A stretch of DNA of 5,028 nt from the IMG/VR virus record IMGVR_UViG_2690315922_000020, one strand, 5' to 3'. The notes beneath the pieces are model-generated. The model saw only the letters and a list, made by a program, of their open reading frames with translations. It made no database searches and was not told where the DNA came from. Below, one piece after another: positions 1 to 5,028 of this stretch. The position numbers and the translations under genes were made by a program. Position 1 is the stretch's first letter. Every line of letters starts with the position of its first letter. This DNA comes from a virus (Duplodnaviria > Heunggongvirae > Uroviricota > Caudoviricetes).

Positions 1-573
1 GTGAGCTTCCTATCTACTCAGCAAATACATGATCAATGTCTAGCAACAACACAAAAAGCTATTGAATCACTTGGATGGACTAATATCTCTGTAGGCGTTT
101 TGAGCGATGAAGAGAGACGCCAGCTTGAAGATGCAAGTTTACAAAGCCACTTGGACTGGCGATGGGCGATGCAGACCTATCGCGGTGACGCTGTAGATGG
201 AATACTGGATATAACGTTAAAGCTGATCGACCGTGATGAGCCCGAACAGCTTCATGCGGTTATCATTTGTAAATACGACTGGCGCCGTGAGCAATTCTCA
301 ATTTGCATGTTAGAAAACTTCATTTCAGATGAGGATACCGACCTAACAGGCAATGTGTTGATCATCGCACTTATTTACGCGACTACCTTCTGCCAGATCG
401 CGGAGCTTGACGACGTTTATATTCAAGATCCTACTGAAGATGCACAACCGCGTTACAGGAGCTACGGATTTGCCCAAGTATGGCATGACCACAGTAAGAT
501 GTCTGCAGATGTGCACGACATCCTCGACACCATACGACGGAAAGTGAATGGCATTGACCCAGTTGAAGAATGA
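1..573 (+). CDS. Hypothetical acidic protein, about 190 aa; 5' end may be truncated by the window edge
   Basis: Uninterrupted ORF from base 1 (GTG at the window edge, so the true start may lie upstream) to TGA at 571-573. Rich in Asp/Glu clusters (DEERRQLED, DRDEPEQ, SDEDTDLT, DPTEDAQ). No family recognised; a weak GNAT-motif-B-like 'RYRSYGF' is seen but the canonical R/Q-x-x-G-x-G/A loop is absent. Antisense ORFs 343..582 and 431..652 are treated as shadows. Confidence 0.5.
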   Translation: MSFLSTQQIHDQCLATTQKAIESLGWTNISVGVLSDEERRQLEDASLQSHLDWRWAMQTYRGDAVDGILDITLKLIDRDEPEQLHAVIICKYDWRREQFSICMLENFISDEDTDLTGNVLIIALIYATTFCQIAELDDVYIQDPTEDAQPRYRSYGFAQVWHDHSKMSADVHDILDTIRRKVNGIDPVEE

Positions 574-601
574 CAATCTCAATCAGCAGTCGATGGGCTG
601 T

Positions 602-630
602 TTGTTTAATGAACGCATTTGTTATAAAAT
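602..630 (+). promoter_or_regulatory. Candidate sigma70-type promoter upstream of the 57-aa ORF
   Basis: TTGTTT (602-607, 3/6 match to TTGACA), 17-nt spacer, TAAAAT (625-630, 5/6 match to TATAAT); lies about 30 nt upstream of the AAGAGG RBS. Pattern match only. Confidence 0.25.
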
Positions 631-663
631 TATCCGTAAAGTCTATAGCCAAAGAGGTTAACC

Positions 664-837
664 ATGATCAAACAACATAAAAAAATCACTTCTGATAAAG
701 CTATGGCTAGTGCAAGACGCTCTCTCGACTTCTGGGCTTCCATCGACGGCAACAAACTTGCCAAAGTTGGTCAGAAGGAAAAAGACATGGATATGGTCGG
801 GCCGAAGAAAGGTGTAAAGCCAGTAAGCCTCGGATAA
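664..837 (+). CDS. Small lysine-rich basic protein, 57 aa, unknown function
   Basis: ATG at 664 preceded by a strong Shine-Dalgarno AAGAGG (651-656) at 7-nt spacing; TAA at 835-837; followed 25 nt later by a hairpin terminator. Translation: MIKQHKKITSDKAMASARRSLDFWASIDGNKLAKVGQKEKDMDMVGPKKGVKPVSLG (13 K/R out of 57). Below the length cutoff of the supplied ORF track. Confidence 0.45.
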   Translation: MIKQHKKITSDKAMASARRSLDFWASIDGNKLAKVGQKEKDMDMVGPKKGVKPVSLG

Positions 838-861
838 TATTCATCATCCCTATCAAAAAAT

Positions 862-882
862 AAGGCTCCCATTGGGAGCCTT
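862..882. terminator. Rho-independent-type hairpin, potentially bidirectional
   Basis: Perfect 9-bp stem AAGGCTCCC (862-870) / GGGAGCCTT (874-882) with a 3-nt loop. An A6 run lies immediately upstream (855-860), giving a TTTTTT tail on the minus strand, and TTATTCAT lies downstream on the plus strand. Confidence 0.55.
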
Positions 883-889
883 ATTCATA

Positions 890-1042
890 TCATAACGGTT
901 TCCCGTTACCAAATTCGCTCTTCTCTTTGCTGAGCTGCTGTTTAGCATATGTGACCTTTCCCCAGGACGTAGGAGTCGTTAGCTGATCTGCTCCCCTTAA
1001 ACGAATGCAGCATAATATTAGAAAATTCCGCTCTTGGCACAT
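890..1042 (-). CDS. Speculative 50-aa minus-strand ORF ending at the shared terminator
   Basis: ATG at 1042-1040 with a weak AGGA 5 nt upstream; TGA at 892-890, immediately followed on the minus strand by the 862-882 hairpin plus T6 tail. Translation: MCQERNFLILCCIRLRGADQLTTPTSWGKVTYAKQQLSKEKSEFGNGKPL. No family recognised; could equally be a non-coding transcript 3' end. Confidence 0.2.
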   Translation of the reverse strand: MCQERNFLILCCIRLRGADQLTTPTSWGKVTYAKQQLSKEKSEFGNGKPL

Positions 1043-1286
1043 AGCAGTCCTAGAGACAGTGTCGTAAAGTTATGGAGGATCGGTGGGAGGAGGTAAAAAT
1101 CCTCTCATACAAAAATACGTAAAATCGATAACGGCTGATTTTCATTCAAACTCGTGCTATCGAATAGCACAAAGCCTTGCAATCCAGTGCAAAGCTTTGT
1201 GTGTATGAGTTTTTTCTCACATCACCAGGCAATCATCAAACTCCGTATTCCTGGCGTCATTAATTATGTAAGTGATCACCACGAAT

Positions 1287-1314
1287 ATAGCCAGTGCAGA
1301 ATAGCCAGTGCAGA
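1287..1314. repeat. Perfect 14-bp tandem duplication (ATAGCCAGTGCAGA x2)
   Basis: Read directly: 1287-1300 and 1301-1314 are identical. The unit is not a multiple of 3. It lies at the edge of a coding-like segment (1276-1491) that has mutually overlapping ORFs on both strands and no RBS. Confidence 0.9.
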
Positions 1315-1546
1315 ACTGTAACCATCATCATCTTCTGGCAGCGCTTCCCTTCTCCCGTTATCCAGATTAACCGGGTGGTGCTGAGGATGAGTCCGATATC
1401 GCTTGATCCTGAATTCCACATCTATAGCAAAGCGGAAGGATGTCTCAATGTCGTGGACACACAGTGTTACAGCCACAAATCTATAGCCTAAGAAAGGTTT
1501 ATTTTGTAATTAAAGAAGATTTTAAAAACCAGATTACTCATTCATA

Positions 1547-1575
1547 TAGACACCAATCCCCTACAGTCATAAAAT
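1547..1575 (+). promoter_or_regulatory. Candidate sigma70-type promoter for the acyltransferase gene
   Basis: TAGACA (1547-1552, 5/6 match to TTGACA), 17-nt spacer, TAAAAT (1570-1575, 5/6 match to TATAAT), in an AT-rich leader about 45 nt upstream of the ATG at 1618. Pattern match only. Confidence 0.35.
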
Positions 1576-1617
1576 GCCTCTTTTGAATTGCTTTATCTTC
1601 ATAACAAGAGGTTATTG

Positions 1618-2700
1618 ATGCTTCGCCACTTAACAGGACTCAGATTTATAGCTGCATTAATGGTTTATTTATGCCATTTAAATACAGACTATTTTGGTGT
1701 TTTTGTAAAAGAAATGTTTTCCCAGGGATTTATTGGCGTTTCCTTTTTCTTTATTTTATCTGGCTTCATTCTTTCATATTCATATGAAGACAAGCTAAAA
1801 AATGAAGTAACAAGTAAAAGACAGTTTATTCTTTTAAGATTGGCAAGAATTGTTCCAATGCATCTATTATTAGCCATGCCATTTATTTTACTAACCATTC
1901 ACTTAAAGAACTTTGATTTTTCAAAAACCTTAACAAATATTTTATTAATGCAAAGTTGGATACCAAAGGAGGATTACTACTTCTCATTAAATGGTGTATC
2001 ATGGTCTTTGTCTGATGAGCTGTTTTTTTATTTAATGTTTATTCCGTTGATTTATACATCAATTACAAAGAAAGTAATCACTGCAATATCAATTATAACT
2101 CTACTATTAACTATATATTTTTTAAAAATTATACAAACAGAAGAACTTAATCACTGGTTATATTATATATTCCCAGTAAGCCGCTTGGTAGAATTTATTT
2201 GCGGCATGATTATTTACGCTTGCTGGAAAAACAGCCGACAGCCGACAGCCGACAGCCGACAGCCGACAGCCGACAGCCGACAGCCGACAGCCGACAGCCG
2301 ACAGCCGACAGCCGACAGCCTTTTGTTTTTAATTTCACTATTACCTCTGCTAATAGCTATATATTATAGCAACAACATAAATAATAGTCTACGTTATTCG
2401 TTATATTATTTACTCCCCATGGTAATATTCTTTACTTCATGCATCTATCTAAGAAATGGAGTCATTCATACTATCCTCAGTTCAAAAACCCTAGAGCTAT
2501 TAGGGAAATCATCATTTATTTTTTATTTAATTCATCAACCCATTATATTATTTTGCTTTAAAATCTTTGGACATAACCCCGGACCACTCTATTTAATAGC
2601 GCTCCTTGTTATAATAACCATAGTCTCAATCATACTTTATAAATTAGTTGAGGAGCCTTTAGAGCTGATGCTAAGAAAACGAATTTTAGCAGTAAAATAA
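1618..2700 (+). CDS. Integral-membrane acyltransferase, family 3 (Oac/OafA-like O-antigen/LPS O-acetyltransferase type), 360 aa
   Basis: ATG at 1618 with AAGAGG (1606-1611) at 6-nt spacing; the track's upstream start at 1588 is a TTG with no RBS. Polytopic hydrophobic protein with family hallmarks: N-terminal R-x10-H in the first helix (LRFIAALMVYLCH), FFFILSGF, RLARIVP, and a C-terminal SSFIFYLIHQP motif. Very AT-rich, unlike the flanking tail genes. Contains the in-frame heptanucleotide tract listed separately. Stop TAA at 2698-2700, followed by a hairpin terminator. Confidence 0.85.
   Translation: MLRHLTGLRFIAALMVYLCHLNTDYFGVFVKEMFSQGFIGVSFFFILSGFILSYSYEDKLKNEVTSKRQFILLRLARIVPMHLLLAMPFILLTIHLKNFDFSKTLTNILLMQSWIPKEDYYFSLNGVSWSLSDELFFYLMFIPLIYTSITKKVITAISIITLLLTIYFLKIIQTEELNHWLYYIFPVSRLVEFICGMIIYACWKNSRQPTADSRQPTADSRQPTADSRQPTADSLLFLISLLPLLIAIYYSNNINNSLRYSLYYLLPMVIFFTSCIYLRNGVIHTILSSKTLELLGKSSFIFYLIHQPIILFCFKIFGHNPGPLYLIALLVIITIVSIILYKLVEEPLELMLRKRILAVK
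2231..2320 (+). repeat. Heptanucleotide simple-sequence repeat (ACAGCCG) x 12 plus a 6-nt partial unit, inside the acyltransferase CDS
   Basis: Read directly: 90 bp of perfect 7-nt periodicity with no degenerate units. GC-rich tract inside an AT-rich gene, flanked by A5 (2227-2231) and T4 (2321-2324). Encodes N-(SRQPTAD)4-S between two hydrophobic segments. Confidence 0.95.
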
Positions 2701-2703
2701 ATA

Positions 2704-2725
2704 AAACCGCGCTATTGCGCGGTTT
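2704..2725. terminator. Bidirectional rho-independent-type terminator between the convergent acyltransferase and tail operon
   Basis: Stem AAACCGCGC (2704-2712) / GCGCGGTTT (2717-2725) with loop TATT; T-rich tails on both strands (plus: TTTTATCTT; minus: TTTTATTTATTT). Overlaps the 3' end of the small minus-strand ORF. Confidence 0.6.
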
Positions 2726-2891
2726 TATCTTCAGGCTTGATGAATTTTTTACCGTCATATGACCAGCCAATACCAACATCTCCAACACATTTAACTATAT
2801 CCGCTTTTTCTGGCTTAAACTCTGACTTACCATCCCATACAACAAGATTTGTAACGACACCATTTTGTACGACTGCATAAATATCGCTCAT
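2712..2891 (-). CDS. Small protein (59 aa from ATG 2891; 64 aa if GTG 2906) translationally coupled to the tail fibre; candidate fibre chaperone/accessory protein
   Basis: The ATG at 2891-2889 overlaps the tail-fibre TAA (2893-2891) as TAATG. A GGGAG lies about 9 nt upstream. The track's start at 2906 is a GTG inside the fibre's last codons. Stop TAG at 2714-2712. Translation: [59 protein letters not shown]. Much shorter than canonical Tfa/U/G-type assembly proteins (about 170-200 aa). Confidence 0.5.
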   Translation of the reverse strand: MSDIYAVVQNGVVTNLVVWDGKSEFKPEKADIVKCVGDVGIGWSYDGKKFIKPEDKTAQ

Positions 2892-3991
2892 TACTGATAC
2901 TCCCACACAAGAATATATCCCTGATTTCCATTATTTCCTGTCGCTGGGCCTGATGACGCCTTATTGTATTTACCTGTCCCGCCAATACCGTATGTCCCAA
3001 GCATAGTAGTGGTTATACTTTCAACGCCAATCGCCTGATCATCACCAAGTCCAAGTGCCCCACATAAATTTGATCGTGAAACTGAATGGAACAGAATCCC
3101 TTGCCCTGTAGGAATTGGTGCTTCTGTTGCACTTCCCCCTGAAAATGGAGGTACCTGCTGAACTTGAGTTGATCCCCTTCCTCCCGGGCATACAAGCAAA
3201 TCACCAAAGCTTGTATTCCCGCCGTCACCTCCAGAGCCTCCTGGTCCTGTTCCTGCTACACCACCGCTTCCAATAGTTACTTGCACGGATTCAGGTATAG
3301 ACTGATAAAAAAATGCTTTAGCATATGCCCCGTTGGAACCGGCAGCACTTACACCACAGTTATTTGAGGCTGTTGCTGATAAATTGCCACTGGCACCACC
3401 ACCGCCAACGGCTTCCACTATAATTTTCGTTACACCAGGTGATTTGTGATAAGTCCCAGATGATCCAAATACCTGAACCCCCAAAAGCCTTCCTGTTCCA
3501 TCACCAAGTGTTAAATATTGTAGATTTTCCGATACGTTTTTTTTACTTAAAATTTCCCTACCATTTTGAGTCAGCGCTGTCATATCCATTGTTCCAGCAC
3601 CTGTAAAAAATGCCAGCCCATCCGGTATTCCTGTTAAGCTCGACAATGATGTCAGATTATCATTTTTATCCTGTTTATCATTCAGAATGTCTGTCATTCC
3701 CAGGTTTTCGAGAGCCGTTTGCACAGTGCCATCCGATTTGATATCGCCAAACGGATTCTTGCGGCTTAACAGCAGCGCACGAAGCGCGGTAAGAAGCTGA
3801 TCGTGCCGCCCCTTCTCCAGGCTGGCACCGGATGCCTCCACCACGCTGCAGAGTTCTTCCTGCAACATGTCAAAGTAGTCATCATCCAGATCGGTGGCAG
3901 GCGTGCCGGTCTGGGGGTTACCACGGGTAAAACCGTTCTTACCCGCGCCGAACTTATCCTTCTGCGCGGTTTTCGTGTCTATACGATGCAT
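2891..3991 (-). CDS. Phage tail fibre protein, 366 aa, with a conserved N-terminal attachment region and a glycine-rich C-terminal putative receptor-binding domain
   Basis: ATG at 3991-3989 with GGAG about 8 nt upstream, 3 nt after the stop of the DUF2313 gene. The N-terminal about 80 aa ([47 protein letters not shown]...) resembles the conserved N-terminus of prophage tail fibres as I recall it. The C-terminal half is rich in G/S/T/N ([44 protein letters not shown]). Its position after the baseplate-J and DUF2313 genes matches the Mu/e14-type order. Confidence 0.85.
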
Positions 3992-3994
3992 GGA

Positions 3995-4579
3995 TTACTC
4001 CGGATATTTAAAAATTACGTAGGTATGCGAAGGGCAGAGTTTGTTAAGCACACACTCGACAACGGTGTCGCCCCAGATACGCAGTGCGGAATCACAGGGA
4101 TCGCCACATGTCATCCAGGTGGTGTTGGTGGCGGCTGGCATGTTGACCTGCCAGTAATACCGCCATTCCGGCGCATTCACCGCGTCAGTACAGGCAGATG
4201 AGCAGGTGAACGTGCTTTTATCGTATCGCGTGATGGTGGCGTCTGGTCTGCCCAGGGCAGCAAGCTGTGCAAGGTAAAAATCCTCATTAATGCCGCCCGC
4301 CAGATTAATCTTCGCATCCAGCCGTTGCTGACGCTGGCGAAGGGTCTGTGTCCCTGTAGGAATACATTCATCCGGCAGGCCGCACAGACGCTCCCAGCGG
4401 TTTATCAGTTCAGTGGTGGTGCGCGGATCCAGCTCCCGCATCAGGGCATCCGCACGCTGATGAACGCGGGTTAATGACGGTGCCGCACCGGCAATCGCCG
4501 GATCGCTGGCTGACCACGCCGGACCGGGGGGCAACAGTGCCGACAACAGACGGATGTAATCATCGTTTGTCACGTCCAT
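3995..4579 (-). CDS. Phage tail protein, DUF2313 / YmfQ / Mu gp48-like, 194 aa
   Basis: Motifs [43 protein letters not shown] and C-terminal [10 protein letters not shown] match my recollection of the YmfQ/gp48 family. The ATG at 4579-4577 overlaps the upstream baseplate-J stop by 10 nt (ATGGACGTGA); its own stop TAA (3997-3995) is 3 nt from the fibre start. Confidence 0.85.
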
Positions 4580-5028
4580 GAAATCGTCCCCAGTACCGCC
4601 AGTTCATTTTTTGCAATGGAGATATTGTCTGCCGGTGCAAGCAACTGATGGCTGTATTCCCCGTTCGCACCGGAAATCGCTTCACTGATACGCGACACCT
4701 TCAGTTCTCCCTGCGGATAACCATCACGCAGCAGGAACGAACGCAACTCGGCGGTGATGGCAGCCCGTATTTCTGGTGTATCCGGCGTCACACGGATATG
4801 AAAATCCACCGTATGCGCCACCGGCCTGAACACATACAAATCAGAGCCTGCCACCGGGGCCAGTGGCCCGATATGTTGTCTTGCCGCCATTTCCGTTGAT
4901 TCTTCCGGAATGGGATTAATCAGGTCACTGCTGGCAATCATCACACTGTTGTGGATCACAAAATCAGGACACCCGTGTAGCCTCTTTCCATTGATTTTCA
5001 TATTCACAGGGTGATAGCCCATTATTGT
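4570..5028 (-). CDS. Baseplate J-like protein, C-terminal portion (gene continues beyond the window's right edge)
   Basis: The reading frame is open to the window edge (no stop in the 6 nt above the track's Met at 5022), and its position immediately 5' of the DUF2313 gene matches a JayE/Mu gp47-type baseplate protein. The C-terminal sequence (...[22 protein letters not shown]...[11 protein letters not shown]) fits that family by recollection. Stop TGA at 4572-4570. Confidence 0.75.

Follow-up and report, generated by a model that had tools for sequence, protein, structure and literature searches.

A heptanucleotide tract as a candidate phase-variation switch in a prophage-borne acyltransferase gene of Escherichia albertii

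Contingency loci that switch through repeats are characteristic of Haemophilus, Neisseria, and Campylobacter; to our knowledge, they are considered rare in Escherichia, with neuO as the textbook exception. In this study, we describe a candidate locus of this kind, an AT3-family acyltransferase gene that carries a tandem heptanucleotide tract, in a 5,028-nucleotide stretch of viral DNA (IMG/VR record IMGVR_UViG_2690315922_000020; hereafter the window), which is the final 5 kb of contig BBVO01000019.1 of the Escherichia albertii assembly GCA_001514765.1.

The neuO gene of prophage CUS-3 contains heptanucleotide AAGACTC repeats and is ON if their count is divisible by three; 3 to 53 copies and an OFF state in 65.6% of 64 genomes have been described, and in another study 2 to 93 copies; variants of plus or minus one unit arise in culture (PMC13001214, PMC3046976). 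AT3 enzymes have an R-x10-H motif in transmembrane helix 1 and, where helix 3 faces the cytoplasm, an R-x-x-R motif; both are essential in OafB and Oac (PMC9833829). In oafA of Salmonella Typhimurium, a 7-bp deletion changes the O5 factor (PMC5024487). The gene described here resembles these systems in several respects and differs from each of them.

The repeat tract and the gene that carries it

An earlier interpretation of the window, made from its letters without database searches (hereafter the sequence-only reading), had described an AT-rich acyltransferase moron convergent on the tail-fiber operon and had missed the perfect 7-bp tandem repeat inside the gene (2231-2320). The features of the gene are as follows.

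1547-1575, plus strand: sigma-70 promoter-like site, TAGACA (1547-1552), a 17-nt spacer, and TAAAAT (1570-1575); 10/12 consensus match
1606-1611, plus strand: Shine-Dalgarno sequence AAGAGG, 6 nt before ATG 1618
1618-2700, plus strand: AT3-only membrane acyltransferase gene, 360 amino acids, from ATG 1618 to the stop codon at 2698-2700, in the ON frame here (Pfam, PHROG, RefSeq)
2231-2320, plus strand: heptanucleotide tract, 12 copies of ACAGCCG followed by ACAGCC, 71% guanine plus cytosine (GC); TRF period 7, 12.9 copies, 100% match, score 180
2699-2730, both strands: hairpin terminator (by folding) between the convergent stop codons, common to the acyltransferase gene and the fiber operon; right end of the cassette

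The tract lies inside the coding sequence 1618-2700 and encodes residues 205 to 235, which consist of N, four SRQPTAD heptads, and SL. As the 7-bp unit does not make up a whole number of codons, the reading frame is preserved only where the unit count is divisible by three. Moreover, because seven and three have no common factor, the tract encodes the same heptad without a stop codon in all three frames, and only the frame downstream of it changes. In the ON frame, the tract is followed by SLLFLISLL and the remainder of the protein; in one OFF frame it is followed by TAFCF and a stop codon, and in the other by QPFVFNFTITSANSYIL and a stop codon. The OFF frames thus end 5 or 17 codons past the tract, and their products are without helices 7 to 10 and without the invariant residues G296, S299, F300, Y303, H306, and E345. 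In the AlphaFold2 model, residues 208 to 229 form a coil (predicted local distance difference test [pLDDT] about 57) between helices 186-207 and 230-249. The position of this low-confidence coil between two helices of an otherwise confident model suggests that insertions would be tolerated there. Counting helices from a cytoplasmic N terminus and taking the R-x-x-R face as a guide, we predict that the tract loop is cytoplasmic and joins transmembrane helix 6 to helix 7. We also considered a role for DNA secondary structure in the tract and rejected it, as the single-stranded DNA folds more weakly than shuffled sequences (z +3.3).

The encoded protein is identical to WP_059279478.1 (360 amino acids, an E. 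albertii record). Its assignment as an acyltransferase, which the sequence-only reading had offered for checking, was confirmed by a match to PF01757 Acyl_transf_3 (E 1.5e-30; 106.8 bits against a cut-off of 31; residues 15-351 aligned with positions 4-325 of the 326-position profile). PHROG 3333, "O-acetyltransferase," matched at 3e-48, and the related PHROG entries bear the names O-acetyltransferase or O-antigen acetylase; NCBIfam gave no named family for the acyltransferase, the fiber, or the small open reading frames (ORFs). Both motifs are present, as R9-FIAALMVYLC-H20 and R74-L-A-R77. In an alignment of 53 family sequences, R9 and R74 are invariant, as are the six C-terminal residues named above; conservation at H20 and R77 is 90% or higher. 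The AlphaFold2 model is all-helical (pLDDT 91.5; predicted template modeling score 0.90), and the order of its helices would accommodate 10 transmembrane segments and an extended loop at residues 96-125. The protein stops at residue 360, right behind its final helix, and neither a second Pfam domain nor a C-terminal SGNH domain follows; it is therefore an AT3-only enzyme like Oac rather than an AT3-SGNH fusion. A Foldseek search of the model against the PDB gave nothing at E ≤ 0.001 (the best E, 0.58, is noise), in agreement with the statement that no AT3 structure had been published as of PMC9833829. Identity to Sf6 Oac was 28% over 155 amino acids, and the best phage protein relative was that of Escherichia phage TL-2011b (35.5% identity). 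A DNA search of the phage collection with the acyltransferase gene gave no match; the gene is therefore absent from every deposited phage genome of that collection.

The composition of the region agrees with a foreign origin. The drop to AT-rich DNA that had been reported from about 1480 to 2700 was borne out, with approximately 29% GC at 1477-2700 compared with 44 to 55% around it: 29.1% at 1477-1617 and 28.9% in the coding sequence without the tract (27% at third codon positions), as against 44% at 1-1476. The 50 to 55% GC that had been given for the tail genes fits 3995-5028 (54.5%) but is slightly high for the fiber gene (47.7%). The low-GC block is uneven, because the tract forms a 90-bp spike, and this spike accounts for windowed GC bins of 0.435-0.485 within the block.

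A promoter of the gene's own and a strong ribosome-binding site had also been proposed. The Shine-Dalgarno sequence stands, whereas the promoter remains a consensus match and not proof; in the promoter scan, such sites were rarer in the window than in shuffled sequences. TTG 1588, the mechanical start of the ORF, was rejected as the start codon; the spacing to the ribosome-binding site and the lengths of the RefSeq proteins favor ATG 1618. The terminator hairpin (2701-2728; 2699-2730 on the minus strand) has folding energies of -18.9 and -20.5 kcal/mol (z -4.5 and -5.5), overlaps the final codons of a 59-amino acid ORF on the opposite strand, and is found in Citrobacter as well. Two hairpins, at 862-882 and 2704-2725, had been taken to bracket the segment. 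Both are real and the second is the right end of the cassette, but the first lies about 600 bp upstream of the AT-rich block, from which a HumD/UmuD-like gene remnant separates it; it is not a cassette boundary and belongs to the upstream ORFs. No GATC site occurs in 1477-1617, and epigenetic phase variation of the Dam/OxyR (gtr) type was rejected on this ground.

Natural alleles and linkage to the fiber tip

Natural alleles were collected by a protein search and cluster look-up, with the number of units back-calculated, and the 15-unit allele came from a viral contig. In E. coli and E. albertii, we found alleles of 3, 4, 5, 6, 7, 8, 9, 10, 11, 12, 15, 17, 18, and 23 units, and the counts were confirmed in DNA for 3, 4, 9, 10, 12, 15, and 17. 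The frame follows the unit count modulo 3 without exception: alleles of 3, 6, 9, 12, 15, and 18 units are full length (339-374 amino acids), and all others end in an OFF tail. The full-length forms have 339, 346, 353, 360, and 374 amino acids, and the fragments have 221-263 amino acids (N-terminal) and 125-143 amino acids (C-terminal). The expanded alleles comprise 14 distinct ON forms and at least nine distinct OFF forms on at least 21 contigs. The OFF figure is a minimum, as it covers 15 of the 45 members of the OFF cluster, and the C-terminal fragment from split genes occurs on 24 contigs (P0132). The OFF alleles are without other lesions, with both halves intact and called as two ORFs. The expanded unit differs by lineage, being ACAGCCG (mainly in E. 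albertii, always perfect), ACAGCAG, or ACAGTCG, which points to recurrent independent expansion. The commonest allele, of 339 amino acids (P0003), was found on 499 contigs and in all seven of the complete E. coli genomes that carry the gene, and has three imperfect units, ACAGCCG ACAGCAG ACAGTCG ACAGCC. In the Citrobacter orthologue, the loop is non-repetitive and just as long as the common E. coli loop (nine residues).

To follow the tract against its background, differences in the flanks were counted against the window (12 units) over a shared flank of up to about 4.9 kb; the two 17-unit loci span 4.3 and 2.8 kb.

E. albertii GCA_027566895: 0/2230 left and 0/2059 right differences; 17 units, OFF
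E. albertii GCA_027567315: 0/2230 left and 0/578 right differences; 17 units, OFF
E. albertii CP117654 (complete genome): 0/2230 left and 3/2626 right differences; 4 units, OFF
IMG/VR prophage L021: 0/2230 left and 3/2626 right differences; 15 units, ON
E. coli KSC1031: 0/2230 left and 2/2626 right differences; 3 imperfect units, ON
Metagenome scaffold L011: 0/2230 left and 10/2626 right differences; 10 units, OFF

These comparisons indicate that the tract changes far faster than point substitutions build up. All E. albertii copies occupy the same site adjoining asrABC and are therefore alleles of one prophage. We also noted that window 1-2230 is 100% identical across E. albertii, E. coli KSC1031 (porcine, USA), and one metagenome scaffold (loci compared: L001, L011, L021, L030, L031, and L032); this 2230-bp identity between species implies a very recent interspecies transfer of the prophage segment.

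A scan of viral contigs for at least three perfect units found one true relative (L021, 15 units) and seven unrelated short tracts elsewhere. The latter are ACAGCCG arrays of 3 to 8 units in contigs L022 to L028 (for example, L024:9621-9676) with no similarity to the gene, and the heptamer is thus not a general mobile motif. With the left-flank pattern, a scan of one genome per species gave no match, and a metagenome scan gave three loci, of which two were read, both with the common 3-unit tract. In the open-access literature, we found no description of this locus, which is weak evidence because only open-access papers were covered.

The following features are needed to place the gene in its cassette.

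About 1217-1476, minus strand: HumD/UmuD-like (S24 peptidase) gene remnant; NCBIfam HumD 8e-10, PHROG UmuD-like 2e-11 (ORF 1276-1476)
2712-2891, minus strand: 59-amino acid ORF directly downstream of the fiber gene; PHROG 14370, 5.8e-28, unknown function
2891-3991, minus strand: tail-fiber gene, 366 amino acids, with a glycine-rich C-terminal (tip) domain; Pfam Gly_rich_2 1.3e-7, PHROG 863/1396 tail fiber

The acyltransferase gene is present in 7 of 5426 complete E. coli genomes, whereas the adjoining tail genes match 2821 genomes. In FDAARGOS_1059 and O111:H2 12A, the fiber is 97.6-97.9% identical and the acyltransferase gene is missing; homology to the window resumes at 2733, past the terminator. 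Such near-identical prophages without the gene, together with its foreign composition and its own promoter-like site and terminator, bear out the proposal of a moron and suggest that the gene is horizontally acquired cargo. The sequence-only reading had stated that the lack of an AT3 match, or a gene that was core and compositionally typical among related prophages, would speak against it; the profile search and the comparison with related prophages gave the opposite result on both counts. Its likening of the placement to that in serotype-converting phages was also sound, as the gene is convergent on the fiber operon exactly as oac is on the Sf6 tailspike gene. Taken alone, without the repeat, the AT-rich AT3 moron is real but ordinary; what stands out is the heptanucleotide tract embedded in it.

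The cassette moves as a unit. A mosaic break lies at about 3766; the acyltransferase gene and the fiber part 2891-3766 are exchanged jointly between prophage backbones. The E. coli mobile unit consists of the S24 remnant, the acyltransferase gene, the 59-amino acid ORF, and the C-terminal two-thirds of the fiber (to 3766). It was found at no fewer than five chromosomal sites (at least pao, bioA-ybhB, argW-intS, near pphA, and beside another integrase) and on two baseplate backbones (YmfQ/baseplate J and DUF2612). Citrobacter portucalensis carries a 78% identical orthologue beside a 61-amino acid ORF on a third backbone (Phage_Wedge1), with a fiber tip that is 65% identical (over residues 83-366). 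The S24 remnant, annotated as frameshifted and truncated at its N terminus in all seven E. coli loci, accompanies the cassette and delimits it on the left; GC content starts to fall sharply right after it. The 59-amino acid ORF was called in every related locus and is always linked to the acyltransferase gene.

Every acyltransferase copy found adjoins the same 59-61-amino acid ORF and glycine-rich fiber tip. The tip itself occurs in 12 of 5426 genome records, seven with the acyltransferase gene and five without; carriers without it include FDAARGOS_1059, O111:H2 12A, AW1.7, and WS4437A-1. The association is therefore strong in one direction. Judged from these sequences, it fits a pairing of receptor binder and receptor modifier and equally a long-standing physical linkage. 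The earlier suggestion that a receptor-binding fiber is paired with a receptor-modifying acetylase is accordingly upheld in the constancy of the neighborhood on three backbones, but linkage explains this too, and the tip is without the gene in 5 of 12 records.

In E. coli WS4437A-1 (NZ_CP035822.1, L034:2499-3095), whose prophage has the same fiber tip and small ORF as the window, a GDSL/SGNH-type esterase gene, not an AT3 gene, lies between intS and the small ORF. Since SGNH is the partner domain of AT3 in fused O-acetyltransferases, this slot may repeatedly gather cargo for glycan acylation or deacylation.

The proposed switch and its alternatives

We consider it probable from these sequence comparisons that the locus is a mobile contingency locus, in which slipped-strand mispairing provides an ON/OFF switch on a lysogenic-conversion acyltransferase. 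We have high confidence that the tract is hypermutable and toggles the frame, and we think it likely that it acts as a true phase-variation switch. In the proposed mechanism, the gene would be transcribed in the lysogen from its own promoter and end at the terminator common to the convergent fiber operon, and the protein would use acyl-CoA in the cytoplasm as the donor for acylation of an extracytoplasmic glycan. Slipped-strand mispairing during replication would add or remove 7-bp units, and a full-length product would be made only if the number of complete units, 12 here, is divisible by three; any other count would shift the frame just past transmembrane helix 6 and, by the early stop, turn the gene OFF. 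The outcome would be a heritable, reversible, and stochastic ON/OFF change of a surface modification within a lysogen population, and we infer that the tract makes expression stochastic rather than constitutive. In the ON state, a surface glycan, most likely the O-antigen, would be acylated, which would amount to bet-hedging for the lysogens.

Several points weigh against this proposal. The evidence is all polymorphism between isolates, mostly in draft assemblies, and no switching within a clone was observed. The commonest allele, with its three imperfect units, should be stable, so that a switch would exist only in the lineages with an expanded tract. Several host prophages are decaying (fiber, tape-measure, and S24 pseudogenes), and the OFF alleles could accordingly be plain decay. 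The O-antigen is a putative substrate: Sf6 Oac is only 28% identical over the aligned part, and no NCBIfam model names the protein. Finally, the promoter is a match to the consensus only, and the loop is placed in the cytoplasm by counting helices.

The point about decay can be put as an explanation in its own right: the tract would be a neutral variable number tandem repeat in a permissive loop of a decaying gene, its repetitiveness would make it expand and contract, in-frame changes would be tolerated, and the out-of-frame alleles would be dead pseudogenes in cryptic prophages rather than an adaptive OFF state. The dominant allele is indeed short, imperfect, and ON, the adjoining prophage genes are often pseudogenes, and among the expanded alleles listed ON is not rarer than chance (14 distinct ON compared with at least nine distinct OFF). 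However, the 7-bp steps and the frame toggling would be identical whether or not selection maintains the tract, and perfect tracts of 12 to 17 units with identical flanks point to ongoing, fast, and hence reversible change and not to one-off decay. The OFF alleles, moreover, have both halves intact and carry no other lesions, and their count is a minimum. We regard neutral decay as unlikely. That the differences in repeat number are sequencing or assembly artefacts appears very improbable. Although most alleles come from short-read drafts and tracts of 17 to 23 units (125-167 bp) approach the read length, the differences come in whole 7-bp units, which is untypical of platform error, and several alleles recur on two to four independent contigs. 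In addition, the 4-unit OFF allele is present in a complete E. albertii genome and an independent metagenome contig, and the 17-unit allele in two separate assemblies.

Other alternatives accept the switch and concern what it controls. The acyltransferase could be phase variable with an acceptor other than the O-antigen, such as the lipopolysaccharide core, enterobacterial common antigen, capsule or exopolysaccharide, or periplasmic glucans, and the link to the fiber would then be mere physical linkage. We take this to be quite possible, although we do not favor it. AT3-only proteins serve many acceptors, for example, WecH acting on enterobacterial common antigen and IcaC on poly-N-acetylglucosamine (PMC9558356, PMC9833829); the present protein is distant from Oac, the fiber tip also occurs without the gene, and the cassette is found in E. 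coli, E. albertii, and Citrobacter (as the 78% orthologue), hosts that are unlikely to share one O-antigen. By contrast, position and orientation match those of known serotype-converting cargo, the PHROG annotations name O-acetyltransferases and O-antigen acetylases, and the gene always stands beside the same fiber tip, rare as that tip is among the 5426 genomes. It is also conceivable, though we give it little credence, that besides the ON/OFF change the number of SRQPTAD heptads tunes activity through the length of the helix 6-7 loop near the acyl-CoA entrance, in the manner of the poly-psi domain of NeuO, whose activity rises linearly with heptad number (PMC3046976). The in-frame alleles span one to six heptads (339-374 amino acids), and the loop is predicted on the same cytoplasmic side as the R-x-x-R motif; yet the model shows the loop in a disordered state, and with a loop of nine residues the Citrobacter form and the common form of E. 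coli are functional or have at least persisted.

If the switch reading is correct, some E. albertii and E. coli lineages would show mixed surface acylation within a clone, with a bearing on serotyping, phage susceptibility, phage therapy, and vaccine antigens, and temperate phages would have reached repeat-driven stochastic surface modification more than once, in unrelated enzyme families. Automated annotation breaks each OFF allele up into two pieces called "acyltransferase family protein," so that the locus is easily taken for a pseudogene. A broader idea, which we put forward tentatively and think rather doubtful, is that Escherichia has here a second mobile contingency locus, which would have evolved independently, would be visible at several stages of its emergence, and would toggle acylation of the glycan bound by the co-inherited fiber tip. 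Lysogens would then hedge between exclusion of related phages or immune escape (ON) and the cost or vulnerability that comes with the modification (OFF), and heptad number might tune activity. The stages could be the non-repetitive nine-codon loop of Citrobacter, the cryptic 3-unit imperfect proto-repeat of most E. coli, and the perfect, hypermutable 4-17-unit arrays of E. albertii. The allele series also lends itself to the study of how a non-repetitive loop can turn into a contingency repeat.

Prophage surroundings and comparison with known systems

The host element is a myovirus-type prophage with a Mu/e14-like baseplate, adjoining asrABC in E. albertii. The remaining features of the window are as follows.

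1-573, plus strand: 190-amino acid ORF; PHROG 4350, unknown function
664-837, plus strand: 57-amino acid ORF, function unknown
859-885, both strands: hairpin 3' of the 190- and 57-amino acid ORFs; -18.9 and -20.0 kcal/mol, z -6.0 and -5.4
3995-4579, minus strand: Mu gp48/YmfQ-like gene of the tail operon
4570-5022, minus strand: baseplate J gene, end of the myovirus-type tail operon

Pfam and NCBIfam searches with the 190-amino acid ORF gave no match. This ORF and the 57-amino acid ORF travel with the cassette in the E. albertii, KSC1031, E41, and metagenome loci and not in the argW or bioA contexts; in several loci, homology to the window begins at 1157-1166. IS66-family insertions occur near the cassette at different points in two 4-unit OFF loci (L029:5007-7319 and L030:3498-6113), and the element in L029 sits between the 57-amino acid ORF and the acyltransferase gene. 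Within the HumD/UmuD-like remnant, there is a perfect 14-bp direct repeat (ATAGCCAGTGCAGA, 2.1 copies) at 1287-1315. In several E. coli carriers (for example, L001:14153-14449), RefSeq gives the fiber gene as a partial "StfP" pseudogene plus an unannotated stretch, and the same fiber sequence in the window, L029, L030, and L031 is one intact 366-amino acid fiber; the split calls look like an annotation artefact of mosaic fibers. The last 82 bases of the window (4947-5028) are unlike every related locus: all E. coli matches end at 4946, and the baseplate J frame changes there. The source contig also ends at this point, and the divergence may reflect an insertion junction (for example, the end of an insertion sequence) or an assembly edge. 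In E. albertii, genes for NleG-like and OspG-kinase-like type III effectors lie just beyond the prophage end, followed by asrABC (L008:1113-4499).

Among serotype-converting genes, the oac gene of Sf6 is close in protein type and setting. Sf6 Oac, with OacB/C/D, is likewise an AT3-only protein of about 333-360 amino acids with both motifs, and its 10 transmembrane helices are compatible with the helix order modeled here; oac lies between the tailspike or fiber gene and int (intS/argW in some of the present loci), convergent on the tail gene, with its own promoter and terminator. However, the two proteins share the low, partial identity given above, and the annotated Sf6 record shows neither a coding repeat nor phase variability. 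Salmonella prophage BTP1 encodes OafB (family II GtrC), an AT3-family acetylase of the O-antigen whose expression is phase variable (PMC9558356), but it and Salmonella oafA are AT3-SGNH fusions, and OafB switches epigenetically through Dam/OxyR, whereas no GATC cluster lies upstream of the present gene. The 7-bp event in Salmonella oafA is an isolated indel, in contrast to the long array here. The oafA gene of Haemophilus influenzae encodes an AT3-family acetylase of a surface glycan, lipooligosaccharide, and is switched by a simple-sequence repeat within the gene (PMC9558356); it differs in being chromosomal, in its 4-nt repeat unit, and in belonging to a host rich in contingency loci.

The resemblance to neuO is in mechanism. 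Both genes are prophage cargo at the tail or tailspike end with a heptanucleotide repeat in the coding sequence, and both are ON only if the count is divisible by three. In both, three units encode a disordered hydrophilic heptad (RLKTQDS in NeuO and SRQPTAD here), the copy number is variable, and many isolates are OFF. NeuO, by contrast, is a soluble left-handed beta-helix (hexapeptide-repeat) protein and not an AT3 homologue, so that the likeness is one of mechanism and not of homology. Its repeat, with the unit AAGACTC, begins 2 nt past the start codon rather than in a mid-gene loop between transmembrane helices 6 and 7, its acceptor, the K1 capsule, is known, and the tract of the present gene is short and imperfect, and presumably stable, in most of its carriers. 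The closest precedents for this locus are neuO and H. influenzae oafA, and its proposed mechanism is closest to that of neuO.

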